From Candidatus Parvarchaeota archaeon (GTDB lineage: Archaea > Nanobdellota > Nanobdellia > Parvarchaeales > Parvarchaeaceae): a stretch of DNA of 64,000 nucleotides. Where the stretch lies: assembly GCA_025920305.1 (NCBI GenBank), contig JAPDMB010000001.1:538-64537 (forward strand). The letters are read 5' to 3'. The notes beneath the pieces were generated by a model. It saw nothing but the letters and a program-made list of their open reading frames with translations. It was not told the DNA's origin and made no database searches. Shown piece by piece: positions 12,033-53,879 of this stretch. A program made the translations under genes and the position numbers. Numbering within the stretch: the stretch's first letter is position 1; each line of letters begins with the position of its first letter.

Positions 12033-12269
12033 ATGGAAAGGAAAGGCGCGGGATATAATAGCAGCAAAAAATTCACAACGGTTTCTCTGCCGAAGCCATT
12101 GGCAGTCAAGCTCAATAAGATAATAAGTGGGACAGGGTTTACCTCCTTATCCAGCTTTGTTGAGTATGTTATGAGGGAGATAGTTGTGAACGAAATGGAA
12201 GGAAGTAAAGGTAAGAACGTAGACGTTTCAGACGTCGAAGAAAAACTAAGGAGGTTGGGATATCTATGA
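12033..12269 (+). CDS. ribbon-helix-helix (CopG/MetJ-like) DNA-binding protein with a CysD-like C-terminal tail
   Basis: The N-terminus TTVSLPKPLAVKLNKII...SFVEYVMREI fits a beta-strand plus two-helix ribbon-helix-helix. It ends ...EEKLRRLGYL. The ATGA overlap with the next gene indicates translational coupling. Confidence 0.6.
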   Translation: MERKGAGYNSSKKFTTVSLPKPLAVKLNKIISGTGFTSLSSFVEYVMREIVVNEMEGSKGKNVDVSDVEEKLRRLGYL

Positions 12270-13102
12270 ATTTGGAAAAAAACAGGGATTCAATGCATCC
12301 GAATAGAATAGAGGGCGGGTTATCGCTGGATGCTAAGGAAAGTATAGCCAAGATAGTGATAGAAGATGCCCTTAAGAGATTCAAGAGGCCTACTGTGGTC
12401 TGGAGCGCAGGTAAGGATAGTACCGTCGTGCTGGATCTAGTATTGAAGGTGTGCAAAAAAATTGGAGTGAGTAATCCCCCTGCTTTATTTATAGATCACG
12501 GCCAGCATTATGATGAGACGATGAAGATGCTTTCGGACGTAAGCAACAGATGGAAGTTCAAATTGATATATGCCAGGAACGAGAACGTGCTTAAAAACGT
12601 TGATAAAAATAACAAAATTAAGGTAAAATCTTTGGATAAGAAGAACCAGGAGGAGGTAAGTCGTATAGGTTTTAAGGGCGAGGAGTTTGAATATGGGTTG
12701 GAAACAGAGGTAGGCAATCATCTTCTTAAGACGGTGGCGATGAATGATGCTATAGAAAAATACCGGTTCGATGCCCTGTTCACAGGGATCAGATGGGATG
12801 AAAATGAAGCAAGATCCAGGGAGGTATTTATAAGCCCAAGAGCATATCCAGAGCATGTACGTGTTCAGCCGATACTCCCATTTACCGAAAGAAATGTCTG
12901 GGAGTATATATTTAAGTATAACTTACCGGTGCATCCCCTCTATAAACAAGGCTATCGTTCGATAGACGGCAAATTCGATTCAAAGAAGACAAGCGATTTA
13001 CCGGCCTGGGAGCAGGATCTTGAGAATACAAGGGAGAGGGCTGGCAGGTCCCAGGACAAAGAAGGTGTGATGGAGAAGCTTAGGCTTTTCGGTTACATGT
13101 GA
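12266..13102 (+). CDS. CysD-like PP-loop ATP pyrophosphatase (PAPS reductase / sulfate adenylyltransferase subunit 2 family), no catalytic Cys
   Basis: PP-loop SAGKDSTVVLDL, FIDHGQHYDET and YNLPVHPLYKQGYRSI. The C-terminus RERAGRSQDKEGVMEKLRLFGYM aligns with the E. coli CysD C-terminus ([24 protein letters not shown]). The Cys of the CysH ECGLH motif is absent. Confidence 0.7.
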   Translation: MNLEKNRDSMHPNRIEGGLSLDAKESIAKIVIEDALKRFKRPTVVWSAGKDSTVVLDLVLKVCKKIGVSNPPALFIDHGQHYDETMKMLSDVSNRWKFKLIYARNENVLKNVDKNNKIKVKSLDKKNQEEVSRIGFKGEEFEYGLETEVGNHLLKTVAMNDAIEKYRFDALFTGIRWDENEARSREVFISPRAYPEHVRVQPILPFTERNVWEYIFKYNLPVHPLYKQGYRSIDGKFDSKKTSDLPAWEQDLENTRERAGRSQDKEGVMEKLRLFGYM

Positions 13103-13160
13103 ACCTTCTAGATAGCGGAACATATATATTAAATTGAAACATTAGATACTAAGTACTGGT

Positions 13161-13259
13161 GGCTCGATAGCTTAGCTCGGTTAGAGCACTGCTCTTATAT
13201 AAGCATGCTCCAATATTTAGGTAAAGCAGGGGTCGCGAGTTCAAATCTCGCTCGAGCCA
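13161..13259 (+). tRNA. tRNA-Ile (anticodon UAU) with a 24-nt intron at the canonical 37/38 position (intron 13200..13223)
   Basis: Cloverleaf assembled by hand. Acceptor GGCTCGA/TCGAGCC, discriminator A. D-stem GCTT/GAGC with a GG loop. Anticodon stem CTGCT/AGCAG. T-arm GCGAG-TTCAAAT-CTCGC. No encoded CCA. Anticodon loop nt 32-37 read CTTATA, then the intron. Bulge-helix-bulge: CTTA (32-35) pairs with intron TAGG, flanked by 3-nt bulges TAT and TAA. Confidence 0.7.
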
Positions 13260-13263
13260 TCTT

Positions 13264-13995
13264 TTAGATAGAACTCAGTATTTGCTTCGCGAATCTTGGG
13301 TTATTGCTAGTTATAGAATCCACACCTATGCTGACGGCTCTCCTTATATCCAATTCTGTATCCACAGTCCATGCGGCAACCTTGAACCCGTTCTTATGGG
13401 CTAAGTCTACGTCGTCCTTGTAGATAAGATAAAAATCGGGCTGGACCCAGTTTCCGCCTAATCTTTTCGATATATCCACCATCCAGCTCACCTTTGAAAC
13501 GAAAAGTACGCCTAAACTGATGCTCTTATCAAGCTCTCTCAGCCTCTCTAACGAGTCAAAGTCGAATGATATTATCTGGACGTTATTCTTAAGCTTGAAA
13601 TCATCGATCAGATCGAGGACCTTTTCTTCTATGTGCGGATATATCTTATAGCTCTGTTTGATCTCCAAATAATAATGAATATCAGTCCCAACCTCCTCAA
13701 AGACCTCCTTAAGCGTAGGTACTCGTGTTTTCTCCCATTTTTTTCCGAATTTAATGCCTGCGTCCAGCTTCTTTATCTCATCGAGAGTGTGATCGTGTAT
13801 GAATCCCCTGCCTTCCGTTGTACGGTCTAGGGTTTCATCATGCATCACCACAAGTTCATTGTCCTTCGTGGTGTGGAGATCCATCTCAACGCCATATACA
13901 CCTATCTCTTTAGCGGTTTTAAAGGAGGGGATGGTGTTTTCAGGCGCTTCGAAAGCTGCGCCGCGGTGCCCATATAGAAGCGGCTTTTCCATCAT
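13264..13995 (-). CDS. glycerophosphodiester phosphodiesterase (GDPD/UgpQ family)
   Basis: LLYGHRGAAFEAPENTIPSF...YGVEMDLHTTKDNELVVMHDETLDRTT is the canonical GDPD N-terminal catalytic block. Confidence 0.9.
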   Translation of the reverse strand: MMEKPLLYGHRGAAFEAPENTIPSFKTAKEIGVYGVEMDLHTTKDNELVVMHDETLDRTTEGRGFIHDHTLDEIKKLDAGIKFGKKWEKTRVPTLKEVFEEVGTDIHYYLEIKQSYKIYPHIEEKVLDLIDDFKLKNNVQIISFDFDSLERLRELDKSISLGVLFVSKVSWMVDISKRLGGNWVQPDFYLIYKDDVDLAHKNGFKVAAWTVDTELDIRRAVSIGVDSITSNNPRFAKQILSSI

Positions 13996-15482: not shown

Positions 15483-15556
15483 GGGTCGTTGGCCAAGTGG
15501 CCTAAGGCACTCGACTGATAATCGAGAGATCGGGGGTTCGAATCCCCCACGGCCCA
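15483..15556 (+). tRNA. tRNA-Ile (anticodon GAU)
   Basis: Acceptor GGGTCGT/ACGGCCC. Anticodon stem CTCGA/TCGAG with loop CTGATAA. T-arm GGGGG-TTCGAAT-CCCCC. Discriminator A. No encoded CCA. Upstream TATA tatataaata. Confidence 0.85.
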
Positions 15557-18473: not shown

Positions 18474-18992
18474 ATGGATAAAATGCTTTTAGTCGGTAGT
18501 AGAGTTGTAATATCCGATCAGCCGCTTGCATCTTCGATATATAATAAAGGCGCATTTGGCGTCTTTGAAGATGGAAAGTTGTATCTCTCGCTGGAGGAAG
18601 CTCTCTATCTGAAAGAAAAGAAAAAACTTGAGATTATCGATAATAGCGGAAAGCGGATGAATGACACGACTATCTTAAGAGTTTTCGGGAGGAGAGAGAA
18701 GGGTTTCGCAAAGAGATATATCGTTTTCAAGAATCTCAGAGATAAAGGTTACATCCCGAAGGCCGCATTCAAATACGGTGGTGATTTCAGGGTATACGAT
18801 AAGGGCGACAGGCCTGGTAAAGAGCATGCCGAATGGATATTAAAGATATATGAACAGGGCGATACGGTGAAGTTCAAAGATTTCTCAGCCTTGAATAGGG
18901 TAGCTCACAGTGTGAAGAAGAGTCTGCTTATTGCAGTAGTAGACGATGAAAATTCAGTTACATTTTATGAAGTGAACTGGAGAAATATCTGA
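18474..18992 (+). CDS. endA: tRNA-splicing endonuclease (EndA, homotetramer/homodimer-type subunit)
   Basis: LSLEEALYL, VFKNLRDKGYIPKAAFKYGGDFRVY and the conserved His/Lys region match archaeal EndA. Consistent with the intron-bearing tRNAs in this window. Confidence 0.85.
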   Translation: MDKMLLVGSRVVISDQPLASSIYNKGAFGVFEDGKLYLSLEEALYLKEKKKLEIIDNSGKRMNDTTILRVFGRREKGFAKRYIVFKNLRDKGYIPKAAFKYGGDFRVYDKGDRPGKEHAEWILKIYEQGDTVKFKDFSALNRVAHSVKKSLLIAVVDDENSVTFYEVNWRNI

Positions 18993-22587: not shown

Positions 22588-23277
22588 TTAAGGCGGTACG
22601 CATTGGGCGGATTCCTCAGAGTACGTTGGTACATATACCACCATTATTACTGAGTTCACTGAAGATGGCAGCGAGGAGCTACCGGCTACATTACCAGAAT
22701 TCGCTGACTTCGGCAGGCTGAATATCTGCGTGCCGTTCATATAAAGCGCTGTCAGATTGAAATTAGTTGGCACAGCGGAATTTGAGGCATTAAGGAAGGT
22801 AATATTGTAAGAGATAGATCCTGGACTTAAACTATAATCGCTTATGATCTTTGATATTGGCAGGTCAAGACTAAGCATAGCTACGGCTCCATTTGAAGTT
22901 TTTAAGATGGATACATAAGCCTGAAATTGGCCGCCATTTAGCGGTAAGATTCCGCTCATATTCATATTAGAGGTAGTTGAGACTTCATGTCCAGTTTTTG
23001 AGTTTAGCACCAGAATGTCTCCGCAGAAAAAAGAAGGGCTAGCCAGTCCTGGAGAAAAAAATGAGAGACTATACGTCGAACCTACACTCTGGCTGGATAG
23101 CTCATCTACGGTGTTCACTATCCCGTTGCTCATCTCAGAAAGTTGATTATAGTTAGCAGAGTTATTGAAACTAGAGTACATGTACATCGCTATGAACAGG
23201 AAAACCGCAAGGATCATCAGCGCGACCCCTATAAGTGTTATGTACTCTATCGATGCCTGTGCAGCTCTGGTTTTCAT
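22588..23277 (-). CDS. archaeal type IV pilin-like protein (class III signal peptide)
   Basis: N-terminus MKTRAAQASIEYITLIGVALMIL: short positive region, Q-x-S-I-E-Y like the Methanococcus QISLEF pilin motif, then a hydrophobic helix. S/N/T-rich body with many N-glycosylation sequons. Confidence 0.6.
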   Translation of the reverse strand: MKTRAAQASIEYITLIGVALMILAVFLFIAMYMYSSFNNSANYNQLSEMSNGIVNTVDELSSQSVGSTYSLSFFSPGLASPSFFCGDILVLNSKTGHEVSTTSNMNMSGILPLNGGQFQAYVSILKTSNGAVAMLSLDLPISKIISDYSLSPGSISYNITFLNASNSAVPTNFNLTALYMNGTQIFSLPKSANSGNVAGSSSLPSSVNSVIMVVYVPTYSEESAQCVPP

Positions 23278-23879
23278 ATTTTATTTTTCTTTAGATATTT
23301 GTCTACAATATTTATTATCTTGTTTTTTACCGTCTCCACATTGCCATTTCCATCCACGACCTTGATATGAAAATTGTTCGCTATCATCAGGAAAGCCTTC
23401 CTTACATCCGAGAGCTGCTTCGCCGTATTAAACATCTCAAAGCTTGTAGTGAGGTCGGATATCCTGCTTAAGCTAACCGTCGGCTTAACGTCTATAAGTA
23501 TCCCTAAATCAGGTAGTCTAAATGACAGATTGACCTGTCTAAGCCATTTATAGTTCAGTCCTGAAGCATACCCATACGCTAAGGTAGAAAATATATACCT
23601 ATCGCATATTACGATCTTGTTCGCGTTTATTGCAGGCTGTATCGTTGTCTCCAGATGGTTCGCTCTATCCGCCGAGAACAGCAGCTGTAATACTCTTCCT
23701 GACAATTTTATATCCCTATTTAGGCTGCTTCTTATTATCCCCCCTATAACACTGTTCGTTGGCTCACTCGTAAGCAGAGTGTGATATCCTTTCTCTTTAA
23801 GATAGATCTCCAGCAATGTAGCCTGAGTATTAAGACCGGCGCCGTCTAAGCCCTCAAGCACTATCAATTTTCCAGCCAT
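23274..23879 (-). CDS. thymidylate kinase paralogue with degenerate P-loop and LID (probably inactive or with changed function)
   Basis: Thymidylate-kinase fold signature DRYIFSTLAYG is present. The Walker A reads EGLDGAGLNTQ, with the Lys replaced by Leu. There is no Arg-rich LID. Stop/start overlap with the pilin gene downstream. Confidence 0.65.
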   Translation of the reverse strand: MAGKLIVLEGLDGAGLNTQATLLEIYLKEKGYHTLLTSEPTNSVIGGIIRSSLNRDIKLSGRVLQLLFSADRANHLETTIQPAINANKIVICDRYIFSTLAYGYASGLNYKWLRQVNLSFRLPDLGILIDVKPTVSLSRISDLTTSFEMFNTAKQLSDVRKAFLMIANNFHIKVVDGNGNVETVKNKIINIVDKYLKKNKI

Positions 23880-23937
23880 AGTTTTTTATATGATACAACA
23901 GCTAAGACTTTCTTCATACATTATTAGCCTTATATGT

Positions 23938-24552
23938 TTATTTACTTTTTATTATTGATTTTATACGGCTGGATACCTCTAAATTTACTTCATCTATGTC
24001 ATTTGATGCGTCCACAGTTATCCAGTTCTTGGTTGGAAAACGTTCTTTTTTCAGTTTCAAATAATTCTCCCTTATCCTTTTTAGTCTCTTCAAGTCACCT
24101 TCGAATCTCTCCGCTTTTCCGGTTCTCAGCCTGCGTAGAGATGTCTCAGGCGGTATATCTAAGTATATTACTACATCCGGCTTCCTTAGACGTAAGATCC
24201 TTATGATCTCCTTTATATCTCTACACCCCACTCCATCTTTCGTCTGATAAGCCAGGGTGGAGACGAAATATCTGTCTAATATTACAGTGTATCCCTCTCT
24301 TAATTTTTTCGTCAAATCTGGCTGGTCCATAGACATGTCCAAAAGGAATAACATTACCTGCTCATATTCGTTGAGTTCTACTTTATTCCTTATAAAATCT
24401 CTAAGTAGTTTTCCATACACATTGTTTTTACTTGGATATTTATAGACTTTATTTTTAATATGCATCCTTTTTAGTAATGCGACGGTCCGTCTTATCTGTG
24501 TGCTTTTTCCAGCTTTATCTATGCCTTCGAAATCTACCAGTTTTCCGTTCAT
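23938..24552 (-). CDS. tmk: thymidylate kinase
   Basis: Canonical P-loop EGIDKAGKSTQ, DRYFVSTLAYQ and an Arg-rich LID (LRRLRTGKAERFEGD). Confidence 0.9.
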   Translation of the reverse strand: MNGKLVDFEGIDKAGKSTQIRRTVALLKRMHIKNKVYKYPSKNNVYGKLLRDFIRNKVELNEYEQVMLFLLDMSMDQPDLTKKLREGYTVILDRYFVSTLAYQTKDGVGCRDIKEIIRILRLRKPDVVIYLDIPPETSLRRLRTGKAERFEGDLKRLKRIRENYLKLKKERFPTKNWITVDASNDIDEVNLEVSSRIKSIIKSK

Positions 24553-26523: not shown

Positions 26524-26620
26524 TGCAGGGGAAGGGATTTGAACCCTTGAACTCCAAAGAGAGCAGATTTCGCAGTGTTACACTTGAGTCTGCCGCGTTT
26601 GACCACTTCGCTACCCCTGC
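26524..26620 (-). tRNA. tRNA-Leu (anticodon CAA) with a 14-nt intron at position 37/38 (intron 26569..26582)
   Basis: Reverse complement folds as: acceptor GCAGGGG/CCCCTGC, discriminator A. 3-bp D-stem with a GG loop. Anticodon stem GCAGA/TCTGC with loop CUCAAG|A (CAA), interrupted by TGTAACACTGCGAA. Long variable arm (CTC-TTTG-GAG). T-arm AAGGG-TTCAAAT-CCCTT. Confidence 0.8.
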
Positions 26621-34434: not shown

Positions 34435-36759
34435 ATGGGCGAGATTAAGAACTGGGGCAGTGATTCAGAATTGAAGGTGCTCGATAGATGGAAAAAAGAA
34501 GAGAAGTCTAATTTTTCCATCGACTCAAAGAAGCCTTATTTCGGTATGGATACCCCTCCCCCGTATACTTCTGGAAGGCCCTGGCATCTAGGTGCAGCAG
34601 CGCATTACTCTAAAATAGATATGATAGGCAGAGCTGCTAGGATGCTGGGATATAACGTTCTATTCCCAATCGGTATGGATAGAAATGGGATACCTGTTGA
34701 AAAATACGTCGAGAAGAGATATAATATTAAGATACAGGAGACTGAAAGAGCGAAGTTCTTGAAGTTATGTCAGAGCGCACTCGATGAGTTAGAGAAGGAG
34801 ATGGTCGGTATCCTGGAGCGGCTTGGTTATTCCGGAGACATGAAGAATATGTACAGGACAGATTCCGAGGAATACAGGAGATTTACACAAGCCACATTTA
34901 TAGATCTATGGAAGAGAGGTCTGGTCTATAGGGGCACAAGACCTAGCAACTACTGTTCGGACTGCAATACTACGATAGCAGACGCTGAGATAATCTATAA
35001 AGATGTGCCTTCAAAATTGGTATATATCAAGTTTAAACTTAAAGGCGCAGACGAATCCATAGTAATAGCTACTACTAGGCCGGAGATGCTGGCTGCCTGC
35101 GAAGCTGTAATAGTGAATCCGAGCGACAGCAGGTATAGAAATCTGACTGGAAAGACCGTTATCACCCCTATATATGGCAAAGAGGTTCCCATAGTCGCAG
35201 ATGAGTCGGCGGATAAAGAATACGGCTCAGGAGCTGAGATGCTGTGTACGTATGGGGATTATAATGATATCCTCTTATCCAGAAAATTGAAAGTAAAAGA
35301 AACTATAATCATAAATGATAAAGGCAGGATGACAGATTCAGCCGGTGAACTGCTGAGCGGCTTGACTGTTAATGACGCCAGGAAGAAGATGATAGAAACT
35401 TTGGAAAGAGAGGGATATATCGATAAGATAGTGGATATAATGCATCGTTCTCCTTTTTGTGAGAGAAGTAACACTTTAATAGAGATCATACCGATGGATG
35501 AATATTATGTAAAGGTGGTGGATTTCAAGCCGAAATTGCTCGAGCTTGCTAATCAAATCGATTTTGTCCCAGATAGAAGCAGGCAGCTGCTTCTTAATTG
35601 GATAGATACCGCTATGGATTGGCCTATATCAAGGAGGAGGTTTTACGGCACGGAGATACCTATATGGTACTGTAAGAATTGCGGAGAACCATACGTGCCG
35701 GAACCAGGCAGATACTACAGGCCATGGCTTGAAGACCCACCTGCCGGCGCTGTATGTAAAAAATGCGGCGGCACAGAATTCATCGGAGACACACGAACGT
35801 TTGATACATGGGTGGATTCAAGCATAACCCCGCTGTATGTGACTAGATATCTTATAGACGAAAAGTTCAATTCTATAACTTACCCTCTTACGATAAGGAC
35901 GCAGGGATTAGACATAGTCAGGACATGGCTTTTTTATAGCCTCCTTAGAGGTTACCAGTTGACGAATAAAGCGCCGTGGAAGACTGTATGGATAGATGGA
36001 GTAGGCTTGGATGAACACGGGGAAAAGATGTCTAAGAGTAAGGGCAATGTGCTGGATCCGGTCCCTATAATCGAGAAATATGGGGCAGACGCATTTAGGT
36101 TCTGGGCGGCATCAGAGGCATCTCCCGGAAGCAATATGCTTTTCTCGGAGAAGAAACTGCAAGGCGCATCCAAATTTTTAAATAAAGTCTTGAACATATC
36201 GAATTTTATCAGCTTGTTCAAATTTGAAAATGATATAAAAGAAGCTGAGCTTCTACCCACAGATAAATGGATACTAGCCAACCTGTCGAAGCTTACGGAT
36301 AAGGTGGTCTCTGCTTACAGGTCCTTTGATTTATTCACCTCCTCGAATAGCATCAGAGAGTTCATTTGGAATATATTTGCACCGCATTACTTAGAGATGA
36401 TAAAGGCCAGGGTTTATGGAAGCGGCTTCTCTAAATCCGAGAGAGATTCAGCGATTTATACACTTCATAAGGTGTTCAAGGTCTTGTTGCTCTTGCTATC
36501 GCCAATAACCCCGTTCATAACGGATGAACTATGGAATAGGGAGTATGGTGAGACTATAAGTTCCAAAGTCCTTCCGGAGACGAGCGGAATCGAGGAGAGT
36601 TATCTTTCTCTCAATGAAGCTATAATATCCTTCAACACGAAGATCTGGAAGGAGAAGAAATCCGCCGGTAAATCGCTTAGAGACAGTATCTCTATAACTC
36701 TACCCGATGAATTGAAGCCGTTTGAGAAGGATCTGATCTCTATGCATAATATAATCTGA
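34435..36759 (+). CDS. leuS: class Ia aminoacyl-tRNA synthetase, LeuRS-like (ValRS/IleRS not excluded), short, with altered HIGH motif
   Basis: PPPYTSGRPWHLGAAAHY; GYNVLFPIGMDRNGIPVE (cf. archaeal LeuRS GYNVLFPMAWHVTGAPV); KMSKSKGNVLDP...YGADAFRFW; zinc knuckles CSDCNT/CKNCG. Only 774 aa. Confidence 0.55.
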   Translation: MGEIKNWGSDSELKVLDRWKKEEKSNFSIDSKKPYFGMDTPPPYTSGRPWHLGAAAHYSKIDMIGRAARMLGYNVLFPIGMDRNGIPVEKYVEKRYNIKIQETERAKFLKLCQSALDELEKEMVGILERLGYSGDMKNMYRTDSEEYRRFTQATFIDLWKRGLVYRGTRPSNYCSDCNTTIADAEIIYKDVPSKLVYIKFKLKGADESIVIATTRPEMLAACEAVIVNPSDSRYRNLTGKTVITPIYGKEVPIVADESADKEYGSGAEMLCTYGDYNDILLSRKLKVKETIIINDKGRMTDSAGELLSGLTVNDARKKMIETLEREGYIDKIVDIMHRSPFCERSNTLIEIIPMDEYYVKVVDFKPKLLELANQIDFVPDRSRQLLLNWIDTAMDWPISRRRFYGTEIPIWYCKNCGEPYVPEPGRYYRPWLEDPPAGAVCKKCGGTEFIGDTRTFDTWVDSSITPLYVTRYLIDEKFNSITYPLTIRTQGLDIVRTWLFYSLLRGYQLTNKAPWKTVWIDGVGLDEHGEKMSKSKGNVLDPVPIIEKYGADAFRFWAASEASPGSNMLFSEKKLQGASKFLNKVLNISNFISLFKFENDIKEAELLPTDKWILANLSKLTDKVVSAYRSFDLFTSSNSIREFIWNIFAPHYLEMIKARVYGSGFSKSERDSAIYTLHKVFKVLLLLLSPITPFITDELWNREYGETISSKVLPETSGIEESYLSLNEAIISFNTKIWKEKKSAGKSLRDSISITLPDELKPFEKDLISMHNII

Positions 36760-36970: not shown

Positions 36971-37879
36971 ATGTTCTGTCAGATATGCGGTAAGGAAGCG
37001 GTCATATCGTCTGCCAGCGGTACGTTCTGCAGGGAGCATTTCCTGGACTATTTTGAGGATGCTGTTTTAGAGACCATCTCCAAGTACAGCCTCATAAATC
37101 CGCATGAGAAGATCGTAGTTGCGAATTCTGGAGGGAAGGATTCTCTGTCCTTGCTTTACGTGCTGAATAAATTCTTTAGAAATACAAACGACATACTGTC
37201 TGTGACTATAGATGAAGGAATCAAAGGCTATAGAGATAAGACGATAGACATAATGAAACATTATTGCGAGGCATGGGGTATAAAGTATAAAATATACTCT
37301 TATAAGGATTTCACAGAAAAGAGCATGGATGAGCTTACGAAGATAAGGCACGGTATACCATGTTCGTACTGCGGAACATTGAGGAGGTACCTGCTCAACA
37401 AAGCTGCACTTGAAAACAATGCGGACAAGATGGCGACAGCGCATAACCTTGACGATGAAGCTGAGAGCGTCCTAATGAACTTGATACAAAATGACAATAG
37501 TCGATTTTTGAGGATCGGTGCGAACGTAGGGTTTGTAAACGACGATAAATTCATCCCCAGGATAAAACCGCTTATGTTTATAAGTGAAAAGGAGACTATG
37601 ATGTACTCTATAATGATGGGCATAAATGCTATCCACTCTGAATGCCCTTATGCAAAGTTCGGGATACGTAGTACGGTATCGGAGATAGTGAAGGAGATAG
37701 AGACTTCACATCGAGGTGGAAAGAGAAATATCGTGGAATGCGCGCTGACAGTTGCAAACAGCTTAAGAGGCGTCGCAGAGCGCAGAGAACTGAATAGGTG
37801 CCGCATATGCGGAGCGCCATCATCTAAAGAAGTATGTGAAGCTTGTTCAATAAAATTGTCTTTAAAGATCAGTATATAG
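36971..37879 (+). CDS. ncsA: tRNA 2-thiolation protein (TtuA/NcsA/Ncs6 family)
   Basis: N-terminal CxxC...C..H zinc finger (CQICG...CREHF), PP-loop VANSGGKDS, central CSYCG, C-terminal CRICG...CEAC. Confidence 0.8.
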   Translation: MFCQICGKEAVISSASGTFCREHFLDYFEDAVLETISKYSLINPHEKIVVANSGGKDSLSLLYVLNKFFRNTNDILSVTIDEGIKGYRDKTIDIMKHYCEAWGIKYKIYSYKDFTEKSMDELTKIRHGIPCSYCGTLRRYLLNKAALENNADKMATAHNLDDEAESVLMNLIQNDNSRFLRIGANVGFVNDDKFIPRIKPLMFISEKETMMYSIMMGINAIHSECPYAKFGIRSTVSEIVKEIETSHRGGKRNIVECALTVANSLRGVAERRELNRCRICGAPSSKEVCEACSIKLSLKISI

Positions 37880-40363: not shown

Positions 40364-41449
40364 ATGGTAATGGATATTTTGGTGGAAAGTGCTTTACGAG
40401 CCGGTAAAGAGCAGATTTCGTCTGAAGATGCGCTCTTCAATCAAGCGCAGATAAAAGTTATTGGAATCGGCGGTGCAGGGAATAATATGGCCTCATGGCT
40501 TCATAAAAAAGGAGTAAAGGGAGCGGAGATAGTGATAGCTAACACTGATCAGGTGCAGTTGAACTCTAGGACAGCAGATAAGAAACTGCTCATCGGGAAG
40601 GAGACCACAAGAGGATTGGGCGCCGGCGGGTTCCCTGAGAAGGGGAAACAAGCTGCAGAGGAGTCCGCTCAGTCCATAAAGGACTCTTTGAGAGGCAGTG
40701 ACCTTGTATTTATATGCGCCGGACTTGGCGGCGGAACTGGCACTGGCGGTGCGCCAGTTGTAGCTAAGATCGCAAAGGAACTTGGTGCTATAGTTATAAG
40801 CACTGTGACCATGCCTTTCAAGACCGAGAGGAAGCGGGTGGAGAACGCTGAAATGGGGCTCCAGGAGCTCAGGAACGTATCTGATACCGTGATAGTGATA
40901 GACAATAACAGACTCGTCAACTTTGCCGGTAATCTGCCCATAGACCAGGCTTTCAACATAGCCAATGAAGTCGTGGCTACAATGATAAAAGGGATAGTTG
41001 AGACTATTGCTATACCTTCTCTCGTCAACCTGGATTTCGCCGATATAAAGGCGATAATGAACAAAGGCGGTGTTTCTGTGATAGGTATAGGAGAGACAGA
41101 CGCTTCTGATTCAAGGGTCGCAGAGGTGGTCAAGCGTGCGCTTAACAACCCACTTTTGGATGTAAGCTACAAAGGCGCTAAGGGCGCATTGATACATATA
41201 ACCGGCGGACCAGACATGACCTTGTCAGAGGTCAATGAGATCGGAGAGCTAGCCACCCAATCGCTGGATTCCGATGCGATTGTGATCTGGGGTGCTAGGG
41301 TGGATGAATCATTCTCAGGCAAGCTGAGGGTGATGACAATCGTGACTGGAGTAAGTTCGCCTTACCTATTGGGCCCGGAGGACACAGCGGTCATCTCTAA
41401 GACGAGCTCGGCTATAAGCAAAGAGCTTGGCATAGAGATACTAAAGTAA
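40364..41449 (+). CDS. ftsZ: cell division GTPase FtsZ (paralogue 1)
   Basis: Tubulin/FtsZ signature GGGTGTGGAP. N-terminus IKVIGIGGAGNN. Strong SD (aaaggaggg) upstream. Confidence 0.95.
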   Translation: MVMDILVESALRAGKEQISSEDALFNQAQIKVIGIGGAGNNMASWLHKKGVKGAEIVIANTDQVQLNSRTADKKLLIGKETTRGLGAGGFPEKGKQAAEESAQSIKDSLRGSDLVFICAGLGGGTGTGGAPVVAKIAKELGAIVISTVTMPFKTERKRVENAEMGLQELRNVSDTVIVIDNNRLVNFAGNLPIDQAFNIANEVVATMIKGIVETIAIPSLVNLDFADIKAIMNKGGVSVIGIGETDASDSRVAEVVKRALNNPLLDVSYKGAKGALIHITGGPDMTLSEVNEIGELATQSLDSDAIVIWGARVDESFSGKLRVMTIVTGVSSPYLLGPEDTAVISKTSSAISKELGIEILK

Positions 41450-46490: not shown

Positions 46491-48398
46491 GTGGATATGA
46501 AAGTAAAGTTCAGAGATAAGATTTACGAATCGAATGAGAGAAGCTCTTTCTTGAAGCTCGCGGAATCAGTCGGCATAGATATAAAAGAGGTAATAACTGT
46601 AAAAGCGGGTGGTAAACTATTCGATTTATCCTCAAGTGTCCCGGATGTAAACGAAGTCGAGTTCCTAGATTTCAATAGCCCAGAGGGGAAGATGGTATTT
46701 TGGCATTCATCTGCGCATATCTTGGCTGACGCGGTAAAGCGTCTGTATCCCGAGGCTTTATTGGGTATAGGTCCTCCAATCGACGGAGGTTTTTACTATG
46801 ATTTTTATAATCTAAACATAGGAGACAATGACCTTAAAAGGATAGAGGAGGAGATGAAGGCGATCTCGAAGGAGAATAATAAGTTCGAGAGGATACCATT
46901 GACAAGGGAAGAGGCCGAGAAGAGACTAAGTGGAGAGAGGTTCAAACTTGAGATATTGAATGACCTGACAGGTGAAATAACACTTTATAGAGATGGAAAA
47001 TTCGAGGATCTATGCAGGGGGCCTCATATTCTATCAACAGGGGCGGTTAAGGCGGTAAAGCTCCTTAAGGTATCAGGCGCCTATTGGAAGGGGGATAATA
47101 AGCGCGAGTCCATGACTAGAATATACGGCATAACTTTTCCTTCAAAAGAGGAGTTGGATGAATATCTCAAATTCTTAGAGGAGCGAAAGGCACATGACCA
47201 CAAGAAGATAGGCAGAGAATTAGAATTGTTCGAATTTTTAGATGTATCGCCAGGTTCTCCTTTCATGCTGCCAAAAGGGACGATAATCTACAATGAACTT
47301 GTCAAACTTGCAAGAGAATACGACACTAAATATGGCTATCAGGAGGTAATAACTCCCTTCATCGCGAAGGTCGATCTTTGGAAGATAAGCGGGCATTTTG
47401 ATAAATATAGAGAGAATATGTTTGAGGTCAAACCATTTGAATCCGATGAAGAATACGCTTTGAAGCCGATGAGCTGCCCATTTCATGTACTAATATTTAA
47501 ATCGAAGACACGTAGTTACAAGGAACTTCCTCTTCGGATATCTGAGCACGGCATAGTGCATAGGTACGAACTGGAGGGGGCGCTGGATGGTCTTTTAAGA
47601 ACAAGGGTGCTGCAGCAGAATGACGCGCATGTCTTCGTCAGCGAGGATCAGATAGAGGATGAGATACTGTTCGAACTGAAAGAACTCAAAGAGATATATG
47701 AGATATTTGATCTATCTCCAGTATTTATCGCTGCTACAAGGCCTGATAAAAGGATAGGGGAGGATGAGCTTTGGGATAAAGCGGAGAATGCAATCTTCAG
47801 AGCGCTTGAAAAGGCCGGCTATAAGTACACCATTAAGGAAAAAGACGGGTCATTTTATGGACCGAAGATAGATATATATGTCCTTGACTTTACAGGCAAG
47901 CCGGAAGCGGCTTATGCTGTGTCGACGATACAGGTAGACTTCAATTTAGCCAGAAGGTTTGATGCAAAGTACACCGGGAAGGACGACAAAGAGCACATAC
48001 CTGTCGTGATACACCGCTCAATACTAGGCTCCTTTGGCAGGTTTATGGGGGTAATACTTTCGAATTCTAAAGGCGAGCTTCCGTTATGGCTGTCTCCAGT
48101 GCAGGTAAAAGTGCTGCCTATAAGTGACAGCAATAAGCCGTATGCCGAGGAGGTTGCGGAAAGACTAATGAAGGATAAAATAAGGGTTGAATTGGATGAA
48201 TCAAATTCGACATTGGACAGAAAAATACGCACTTCTCAGTTGGAGAAAGTTCCATACACGGTTGTGGTAGGCGAGAAAGAGGAAAAGAGTAAAACTATAG
48301 CAGTTAGGGATAGGTCAGGCAAAACCAGTTATAATGTAGATTTAAGTAAGTTTATATCGGATTTGACGGAGAAAATCAGGCTAAGGTCTAAAGCTTAA
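46491..48398 (+). CDS. thrS: threonyl-tRNA synthetase
   Basis: Class II motifs (FRALEKAGYKY..., HRSILGSFGRFMGVIL), N-terminal archaeal editing/TGS region, C-terminal anticodon-binding domain. 635 aa. Confidence 0.92.
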   Translation: MDMKVKFRDKIYESNERSSFLKLAESVGIDIKEVITVKAGGKLFDLSSSVPDVNEVEFLDFNSPEGKMVFWHSSAHILADAVKRLYPEALLGIGPPIDGGFYYDFYNLNIGDNDLKRIEEEMKAISKENNKFERIPLTREEAEKRLSGERFKLEILNDLTGEITLYRDGKFEDLCRGPHILSTGAVKAVKLLKVSGAYWKGDNKRESMTRIYGITFPSKEELDEYLKFLEERKAHDHKKIGRELELFEFLDVSPGSPFMLPKGTIIYNELVKLAREYDTKYGYQEVITPFIAKVDLWKISGHFDKYRENMFEVKPFESDEEYALKPMSCPFHVLIFKSKTRSYKELPLRISEHGIVHRYELEGALDGLLRTRVLQQNDAHVFVSEDQIEDEILFELKELKEIYEIFDLSPVFIAATRPDKRIGEDELWDKAENAIFRALEKAGYKYTIKEKDGSFYGPKIDIYVLDFTGKPEAAYAVSTIQVDFNLARRFDAKYTGKDDKEHIPVVIHRSILGSFGRFMGVILSNSKGELPLWLSPVQVKVLPISDSNKPYAEEVAERLMKDKIRVELDESNSTLDRKIRTSQLEKVPYTVVVGEKEEKSKTIAVRDRSGKTSYNVDLSKFISDLTEKIRLRSKA

Positions 48399-52745: not shown

Positions 52746-53879
52746 ATGGAAATGAATAGGATTACTGCATCAAGCATATCTAATGAGGGGGTCAAGGCCC
52801 CAAATATCGACATAAGTAGGACCAAGGAATTCGATAAGGCTTTAGAAGATCTTATAACCAATAGGCGGACCAGTATAAAGGTGGTAGGTGTCGGCGGCTC
52901 CGGCAACAATACTCTGAACAGAATGTTCGAGGTGGGCATCAAAGGCGCAGAGCTGATCGCGATGAATACAGATGCCGCTGATCTTCTATGTACCCCTTCT
53001 GATAAGAAGGTACTGCTTGGAAAGGAACTTACGAAAGGGCTCGGTGCCGGTGCTAATTCAGAGATTGGCGAAGCGGCTGCCAAAGAGCAGGAGCAGGAGA
53101 TAAAAGACGTCCTTCAAGGAGCCGATATGGTTTTCATATGCGGCGGCATGGGCGGTGGCACAGGGACTGGCGGTATACCTGTCGTAGCCAGGGTGGCTAA
53201 AAAACTGAACGCTCTAACCATAGCCGTCGTTACGTTACCATTCAAGATGGAAGGCAAGAATAGGATGAATACAGCGATGAGTGGCATAGAGAAACTGAAA
53301 GATGTGGTTGATACGCTGATAGTGATACCAAATGAGAAATTAAGGGCTATAGCTCCTGATCTCCCTCTACCTATAGCTTTGAAGGTTGCCGATGATGTTC
53401 TTACTAACGCTGTCAAGGGCATAACAGAGCTGATAACAAGGCCTGGTCTGATAAATGTGGATTTTGCTGATGTGAAGGCGATAATGTCAAACGGTGGAGT
53501 AGCTCTTATAAGTTCTGCGGAAAGCGACGCGAAGGACAAGAAGATAGAGACTATAGTCGAAAAAGTCTTGAATAACCCTCTGATAGACGTGGATCTTTCA
53601 ACTGCTAAAGGCATGCTGATAGATGTAAGCGGCGGCTCGTCCCTGACGTTGGAAGAGGCTAGTTCAGTTGTAGATTTGGTCAGCAGGAGGCTCCCAGAAA
53701 ATATAAATGTCATCTGGGGTGCGCATATCTTCCCGGATCTTAAGAATACTATAAGGGTTATGGCTATAATAACGGGCGTGACTTCTAAGCAGATATTCGG
53801 TAAATCCATATCGGAAGAGAAGGAACTTAAGGATAAGCGGGAAGTGGAAGAAGAGCTGGGCATAAAGTTTTTAGGGTAG
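52746..53879 (+). CDS. ftsZ: cell division GTPase FtsZ (paralogue 2)
   Basis: Motifs: IKVVGVGGSGNN, GGGTGTGGIP. Followed by secE as in Euryarchaeota. Confidence 0.93.
   Translation: MEMNRITASSISNEGVKAPNIDISRTKEFDKALEDLITNRRTSIKVVGVGGSGNNTLNRMFEVGIKGAELIAMNTDAADLLCTPSDKKVLLGKELTKGLGAGANSEIGEAAAKEQEQEIKDVLQGADMVFICGGMGGGTGTGGIPVVARVAKKLNALTIAVVTLPFKMEGKNRMNTAMSGIEKLKDVVDTLIVIPNEKLRAIAPDLPLPIALKVADDVLTNAVKGITELITRPGLINVDFADVKAIMSNGGVALISSAESDAKDKKIETIVEKVLNNPLIDVDLSTAKGMLIDVSGGSSLTLEEASSVVDLVSRRLPENINVIWGAHIFPDLKNTIRVMAIITGVTSKQIFGKSISEEKELKDKREVEEELGIKFLG

Follow-up and report, generated by a model that had tools for sequence, protein, structure and literature searches.

The window, that is, the whole 64,000-nt stretch of DNA analysed here, carries at 13161..13259 (+) a tRNA gene that is interrupted by an intron and has the anticodon UAU. 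The gene matched the Rfam model RF00005 over model positions 1–71 of 71 with a score of 58.5 bits (gathering score 29), corresponding to E = 4.7e-10 with the whole 64-kb window as search space. All elements of the cloverleaf can be read from the sequence: the acceptor stem is formed by GGCTCGA and TCGAGCC, the D stem by GCTT and GAGC, and the anticodon stem by CTGCT (13189–13193) and AGCAG (13225–13229), while the T arm consists of GCGAG-TTCAAAT-CTCGC. The discriminator is the A at 13259 and CCA is not encoded. Exon 1 (13161..13199, +) supplies tRNA positions 1–37, including the anticodon TAT at 13196–13198 (+), and is supported by the Rfam score together with compensatory changes in three stems (acceptor, anticodon and T). 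Exon 2 (13224..13259, +) supplies positions 38–73 and is supported by both the Rfam alignment and the alignment of orthologues. An AT-rich, TATA-like box, CATATATATTAAAT, is located at 13121..13134 (+), 27–40 nt upstream of the mature 5’ end, and a T-rich trailer, TCTTTT, directly follows the gene at 13260..13265 (+). A comparable AT-rich stretch is present 25–45 nt upstream of most orthologues, and most are also followed by a T-rich trailer. Judged by their sequence, the two elements are a putative archaeal promoter and a putative archaeal transcription terminator, respectively.

Orthologues were collected by searching species-representative genomes with the PAPS-reductase-like protein encoded beside the tRNA (12266–13102), which returned 29 loci (L001–L029). 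An exact-sequence look-up of this flanking protein matched no record. Parvarchaeales-type MAGs account for 24 of the 29 loci, with flanking proteins 71–85% identical to that of the window, and many of these MAGs are carried under Nanoarchaeota in GTDB-derived naming. The relatives include Parvarchaeum, Acidifodinimicrobium and GTDB-Nanoarchaeota MAGs, with 83–85% identity in the nearest MAGs, 78% in ARMAN-4 (L007) and 77% in ARMAN-5 (L015). A tRNA-Ile(UAU) gene lies near the PAPS-reductase-like gene in 22 related genomes, and the copy at L002 is 100% identical to that of the window. The alignment A1 comprised 14 distinct sequences, window included. Across these 14 sequences the cloverleaf and splice motif were 98.7% paired, compared to no more than 54.5% in slid controls, and changes on both sides of a pair were found at five of seven acceptor pairs, three of five T-stem pairs and one of five anticodon-stem pairs. 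None of 500 shuffles matched the observed covariation score. The orientation of the tRNA gene differs in the ARMAN-5 branch (L011 11276..11372 and L015 11278..11374), where it is inverted relative to the PAPS-reductase-like gene; at the remaining loci that carry it, both genes are on the same strand.

The two strands of the anticodon stem are separated by 31 nt, so that a 24-nt intron has to be removed to leave an anticodon loop of seven. In the Rfam alignment, a 25-nt insertion (the 24-nt intron and A38) falls directly behind CUUAUA, which occupies loop positions 32–37. To place the intron, all eight positions that leave a 7-nt loop were scored in each of the 14 sequences. The canonical position 37/38 (k=6), which defines an intron at 13200..13223 (+), was the only one compatible with a bulge-helix-bulge (BHB) motif, with a central helix of 4/4 pairs (3/4 in ARMAN-4) that stacks on an h helix of 5 bp, the anticodon stem; other placements retaining UAU lacked a BHB. 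Splicing at 37/38 gives the mature loop CTTATAA in 14/14 distinct syntenic sequences, corresponding to CUUAUAA with the anticodon UAU in the RNA. The BHB extends over 13194..13224 (+) and consists of a central helix between CTTA (13194–13197) and TAGG (13218–13221), two 3-nt bulges, TAT on the 5’ side (13198–13200) and TAA on the 3’ side (13222–13224), each with its cut behind the second base, and a weak outer helix h’. An earlier note made from this DNA had proposed the 24-nt intron at 37/38, this BHB, the anticodon UAU and a discriminator A73 consistent with isoleucine identity. The placement scan and the Rfam insertion bear out the intron, the BHB reads exactly as claimed, and the anticodon and the A at 13259 are likewise as the note had them.

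Throughout the orthologues, 98.2% of the central-helix cells are paired, and variation is confined to the intron side (U33-G to U33-A), with no two-sided covariation; this is to be expected, the exon strand being the anticodon loop, which does not vary. The outer helix h’ is far less regular. In the window it joins 13201–13202 to 13216–13217 through just two base pairs (AA/UU), and among the orthologues its length ranges from 1 to 5 bp, with 1 bp in ARMAN-5 and 88.9% of cells paired. A mini-hairpin that competes with h’ is 95.2% paired, and a helix between exon and intron, described below, fits the same region too.

Nearest-neighbour folding assigned −24.6 to −27.5 kcal/mol to the cloverleaf with BHB, compared to −35.5 kcal/mol for the minimum free energy (MFE) structure. 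Neither thermodynamic folding of the whole precursor nor that of isolated anticodon arms recovered the BHB, and z-scores were not significant. The placement of the intron was therefore based on comparative evidence. An MFE fold that is not a cloverleaf, together with the silence of plain ARAGORN, which did not report the 13161..13259 tRNA in the window, is what might be expected of a decaying pseudogene or of a chance tRNA-like sequence. Such an origin is nevertheless almost certainly wrong, given the Rfam score of the gene, its synteny in the 22 related genomes, the compensatory changes in its stems and its invariant anticodon loop.

A candidate enzyme for removal of the intron has its gene 5 kb downstream of the tRNA. 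The protein at 18474..18992 (+) is a tRNA-splicing endonuclease EndA of 172 aa, a single unit of the size of an α4-type enzyme, with both the N- and the C-terminal domain (PF01974 and PF02778 in Pfam) and a score of 104.7 bits for TIGR00324 endA (NCBIfam), whose cut-off is 59.6. From these domain matches, cutting of the BHB would be expected to fall to this protein. Splicing endonucleases of the α4 type are thought to require a strict BHB. An h’ of 2 bp in the window, or 1 bp in ARMAN-5, is marginal for an enzyme of this type acting on a strict hBHBh’ substrate.

A different name for the gene was produced by ARAGORN when run with its intron option (-i). The gene was found, yet the intron was set three bases further 5’ (13197–13220), which yields tRNA-Thr(UGU); a further shift would yield Thr(GGU). 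The window does contain a ThrRS gene (46497–48398), an observation that is uninformative on this point. Against the threonine placement, it is without a BHB, having a central helix of 1/4 pairs and an h of 0 bp, and Rfam keeps CUUAUA as loop positions 32–37. Archaeal tRNA-Thr usually carries U73, and the A73 present here is atypical for it. On the orthologues, ARAGORN -i issued the labels Thr, Ser, Leu, Ile and Thr(AGU), and its placement led to five anticodons, UGA (Ser), UAA (Leu), UGU, AGU and UAU. Five anticodons for a single orthologous gene are not explicable by selection on the anticodon. The threonine call is regarded as an artefact, because ARAGORN does not model the BHB, and a tRNA-Thr at this locus is considered very improbable. 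The ARAGORN placement was rejected as a guide to the anticodon on account of its missing BHB and its inconstant anticodons in the orthologues. The earlier note had named a tRNA finder placing the intron elsewhere, with a Thr anticodon as the example, as the result that would count against its reading. That result was obtained in form, but the placement behind it fails on both the BHB and the orthologues, and the tRNA is described as tRNA-Ile(UAU) in what follows.

AUA is heavily used in the window. No other codon is as frequent in its 61 non-overlapping ORFs, where AUA accounts for 1118 of 18,404 codons (6.1%), making up 68% of all Ile codons and occurring 2.4 times as often as AUG. Other A-ending codons in the same ORFs are not similarly favoured (GUA 28%, ACA 28% and CUA 13%), which argues that the bias towards AUA is codon-specific rather than compositional. 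When one window protein was compared with distant homologues, its AUA sites, a small sample of 44, were aligned to I (14), L (9), V (4) and M (2). With I, L and V predominating at these sites, AUA is taken to mean Ile, and as AUA is also the most frequent codon, tRNA-Ile(UAU) would be a major tRNA. The Ile identity of the tRNA itself is suggested by its anticodon, by A73 and by precedent.

The remaining Ile codons, AUU and AUC, are served by an intron-less tRNA-Ile(GAU) at 15483..15556 (+), 2.3 kb downstream of tRNA-Ile(UAU). This gene was detected by ARAGORN and by Rfam (69.7 bits), in agreement with the earlier note, which had described a normal tRNA-Ile(GAU) alongside the intron-containing gene. 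The mature tRNA-Ile(UAU) is 63% identical to tRNA-Ile(GAU) and 52–60% identical to unrelated tRNAs. A recent duplication of tRNA-Ile(GAU), in the style of K. cryptofilum, was rejected given that an identity of 63% is close to this background.

In archaea, AUA is usually read by tRNA-Ile2(CAU), which is made to carry agmatidine by TiaS. Neither component was detected at the loci that were searched. With the A. fulgidus TiaS sequence as query, which is identical to PDB 4RVZ over 420 aa, tblastn against the window and L001–L029 gave no match better than E = 1.3, and a Pfam scan of 60 window ORFs found no TiaS. None of the five window tRNAs has a CAU anticodon, nor do any of the tRNAs of L001–L029, as judged by Rfam and ARAGORN. 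The tRNA-Ile(UAU) could be real but redundant if tiaS and tRNA-Ile2(CAU) were both encoded elsewhere in the genome, in which case AUA decoding would not depend on UAU. In its favour, the search covered about 64 kb of a genome of roughly 1 Mb. It is nonetheless improbable in view of the near-complete genomes of ARMAN-4 and ARMAN-5, members of the same order that were reported to lack both (PMC3239211). Both tiaS and tRNA(CAU) are also missing from the window and from L001–L029 (mostly 10–21 kb each), and the use of AUA as the most frequent codon fits a dedicated major tRNA. Genome-wide, TiaS and tRNA-Ile(CAU) would then be absent from this organism too, as the literature reports for ARMAN-4/5, and tRNA-Ile(UAU) would be the tRNA on which AUA decoding depends.

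Among the other proteins of the window is a PP-loop protein (36971..37879, +) that adjoins ValRS (34435..36759) and is of the TtuA/NcsA-type tRNA 2-thiolation family, its scores of 210 and 185 bits both lying under the equivalog cut-offs. Assignment of this protein as a TilS-like enzyme was rejected, the TilS N-domain scoring 71.9 bits against a cut-off of 93.6. A second intron-containing tRNA is located at 26524..26620 (−) (Rfam 52.7 bits) and is a tRNA-Leu(CAA) with a 14-nt intron at 37/38 (26569..26582), a long variable arm, A73 and a BHB with a central helix of 3/4 pairs and an h of 6 bp; ARAGORN -i misnames it tRNA Pyl(CTA) with a 5-nt intron. Two gene families are represented by paralogues in the window of this small-genome archaeon. 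Thymidylate kinase is present as two tandem paralogues (23274..24552, −), and FtsZ as two paralogues at 40364..41449 and 52746..53879 (+).

Genes resembling tRNA-Ile(UAU) were also sought in metagenomes through their shared pattern of D arm and anticodon arm, and at least 120 stretches were obtained (L030–L149). With 94 metagenomic genes that could be parsed among the matches listed and the 14 from A1, the set amounted to 108 genes, of which 30 are intron-less, 18 have short introns and 60 have introns of 44–64 nt. The 78 intron-containing genes of this set reduce to 77 distinct ones (the window, 13 orthologues from genomes and 63 metagenomic), most of which have a central helix of 4/4 pairs at 37/38. 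Groundwater, lake and sediment metagenomes are abundant sources of tRNA(UAU) with the same D and anticodon arms. The 60 introns of 44–64 nt among the matches listed are located at 37/38, start with N-GAR and have an internal hairpin that is conserved (YTCGTTAGRA is one example), and some of the 30 intron-less metagenomic genes among them look bacterial. In two Parvarchaeales-like tRNA(UAU) genes (L074 1658.. and L082 ..1685), an apparent further break is located behind TTCAAA in the T loop and may represent a second, non-canonical intron.

An RNAalifold consensus of the precursors differs from the mature fold around the anticodon. The D and anticodon stems are absent from it, and exon columns 24–34 instead pair with intron columns 41–50. 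The resulting candidate precursor helix covers 13184..13210 (+) in the window and pairs exon 13184–13188 with intron 13206–13210 and exon 13190–13193 with intron 13202–13205. Its exon side corresponds to tRNA positions 22–31, comprising the 3’ strand of the D stem (GAGC), N26 and the 5’ strand of the anticodon stem. The alternative helix cannot coexist with the mature fold, competing with the D stem, the anticodon stem and h’ of the BHB, and would leave a hairpin loop of 6–8 nt that displays U34-A35-U36 along with the 5’ splice site.

Conservation of this helix was assessed in a second alignment, A2, in which the 14 sequences of A1 were joined by four Parvarchaeales-like metagenomic sequences to give 18. 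The whole helix is 95.7% paired in these, and its 5-bp core, columns 24–28 with 46–50, is paired in 18/18. Column pair 28/46 is A-U in ten sequences, G-C in six and G-U in two, with no mismatch, and 24/50 and 30/45 show one compensatory event each. Of 500 shuffled controls, 4 reached the observed covariation score, a figure to be read with the caveat that 5–25% of alignments under no constraint can give as good a result. The covariation of the alternative helix is accordingly suggestive, not conclusive. The helix may be a folding intermediate, it may be a relic of the origin of the intron, or the pattern may reflect chance covariation among related sequences. A more specific proposal, for which the 18-sequence pattern provides the grounds, is that the intron has been kept in all Parvarchaeales orthologues since its 5’ half forms a selected helix that would be the substrate for an intron-dependent modification of U34. 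This proposal is considered unlikely. If it were true, modification of U34 on the alternative helix, in the way that yeast Pus1 makes ΨAΨ, would stop UAU from reading AUG.

Taken together, the gene at 13161..13259 very probably encodes the tRNA-Ile(UAU) (‘Ile3’) that reads AUA in a DPANN archaeon of the Parvarchaeales (ARMAN-4/5-like); this tRNA would be spliced by EndA and would replace the agmatidine route. In the proposed pathway, transcription from the upstream TATA-like box would produce a precursor of 99 nt, in which the anticodon arm and intron would form the BHB. EndA would cut in both 3-nt bulges, between 13199 and 13200 and between 13223 and 13224. Ligation of the halves is expected to join ...CUCUUAUA to AAGCAGG at the splice junction, and CCA would be added. 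The mature 75-nt tRNA would have the loop CUUAUAA. Once charged by IleRS, this tRNA would read AUA through pairing of U34 with A, leaving AUU and AUC to tRNA-Ile(GAU), and any modification of U34 would be expected to act against misreading of AUG. The directly encoded UAU would in this way stand in for the route through tRNA-Ile2(CAU), agmatidine and TiaS, the two solutions sharing the same task of reading AUA as Ile without reading AUG.

A tRNA of this kind has precedent in the same order. Fujishima et al. (2011) reported that tRNA-Ile(UAU) is present, and that tRNA-Ile(CAU) and TiaS are absent, in ARMAN-2, -4 and -5, that the ARMAN-2 pre-tRNA-Ile(UAU) with its 25-nt intron at 37/38 is correctly cut in vitro, and that ARMAN-4/5 carry an α4-type EndA of 177 aa (PMC3239211). 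The window gene is an orthologue of the ARMAN-4/5 tRNA-Ile(UAU) in another member of the order, and has in this sense been known since 2011. The genes of ARMAN-4 and -5 (Ca. Parvarchaeum) and ARMAN-2 (Ca. Micrarchaeum) share with it the anticodon and an intron of 24–25 nt at 37/38; ARMAN-4 and -5 both hold the orthologue and, like the window, encode EndA as a single unit of about 175 aa. The window differs in being from another species, in an intron of 24 nt rather than 25 and in an h’ of only 2 bp. The splicing in vitro, moreover, was performed with the ARMAN-2 precursor and an ε2 enzyme, not with a Parvarchaeum precursor and an α4-type enzyme. In a search of the literature on TiaS or agmatidine in DPANN lineages, the best-ranked matches included no report, and the 2011 ARMAN paper was the sole one found.

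Elsewhere in the archaea, tRNA-Ile(UAU) has been documented in N. equitans and K. cryptofilum (PMC6000648, PMC8450103). In both Nanoarchaeum equitans and Korarchaeum cryptofilum, where it is termed ‘Ile3’, a genomic UAU replaces tRNA-Ile2(CAU) and TiaS (PMC8450103, PMC6000648). The earlier note had held that a genomically encoded UAU is confined to a few lineages such as these; the nanoarchaeal and korarchaeal cases stand, whereas the restriction does not, since ARMAN-2, -4 and -5 have it too (PMC3239211). The K. cryptofilum gene is also intron-bearing, like that of the window, but its UAU tRNA is closely similar to the GAU isoacceptor of the same organism (PMC6000648), whereas the pair in the window is the divergent one described above.

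Comparable solutions exist outside the archaea. In Mycoplasma mobile, a tRNA-Ile(UAU) has taken the place of the cytidine-modification enzyme, which was lost (Taniguchi et al. 2013; PMC3575796). That tRNA differs from the one described here in being bacterial and intron-less, with a bacterial-type IleRS and an unmodified U34 (PMC3575796). The yeast tRNA-Ile(UAU) shares with the window gene the anticodon, an intron at 37/38 and the need to tell AUA from AUG, and the intron of its precursor is required for Ψ34 and Ψ36, which are made by Pus1 (PMC4090602). Eukaryotic tRNA-Ile(UAU) is spliced by a ruler mechanism as opposed to the archaeal BHB and EndA, and the intron in the window is much shorter.

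The practical value of the gene is mainly as a warning for annotation, as standard ARAGORN settings miss it or label it Thr, Ser or Leu. In biological terms, AUA alone among the codons demands a special device in each of bacteria, archaea and eukaryotes if Ile is not to be confused with Met, and a tRNA-Ile(UAU) that serves the top codon of the genome region sharpens the question of how U34 is kept from AUG. The agmatidine/TiaS system is dispensable, as is shown by lineages with a directly encoded UAU, and the window provides a further data point for the conservation of an intron-containing tRNA-Ile(UAU) throughout Parvarchaeales and for its frequent occurrence in environmental metagenomes.
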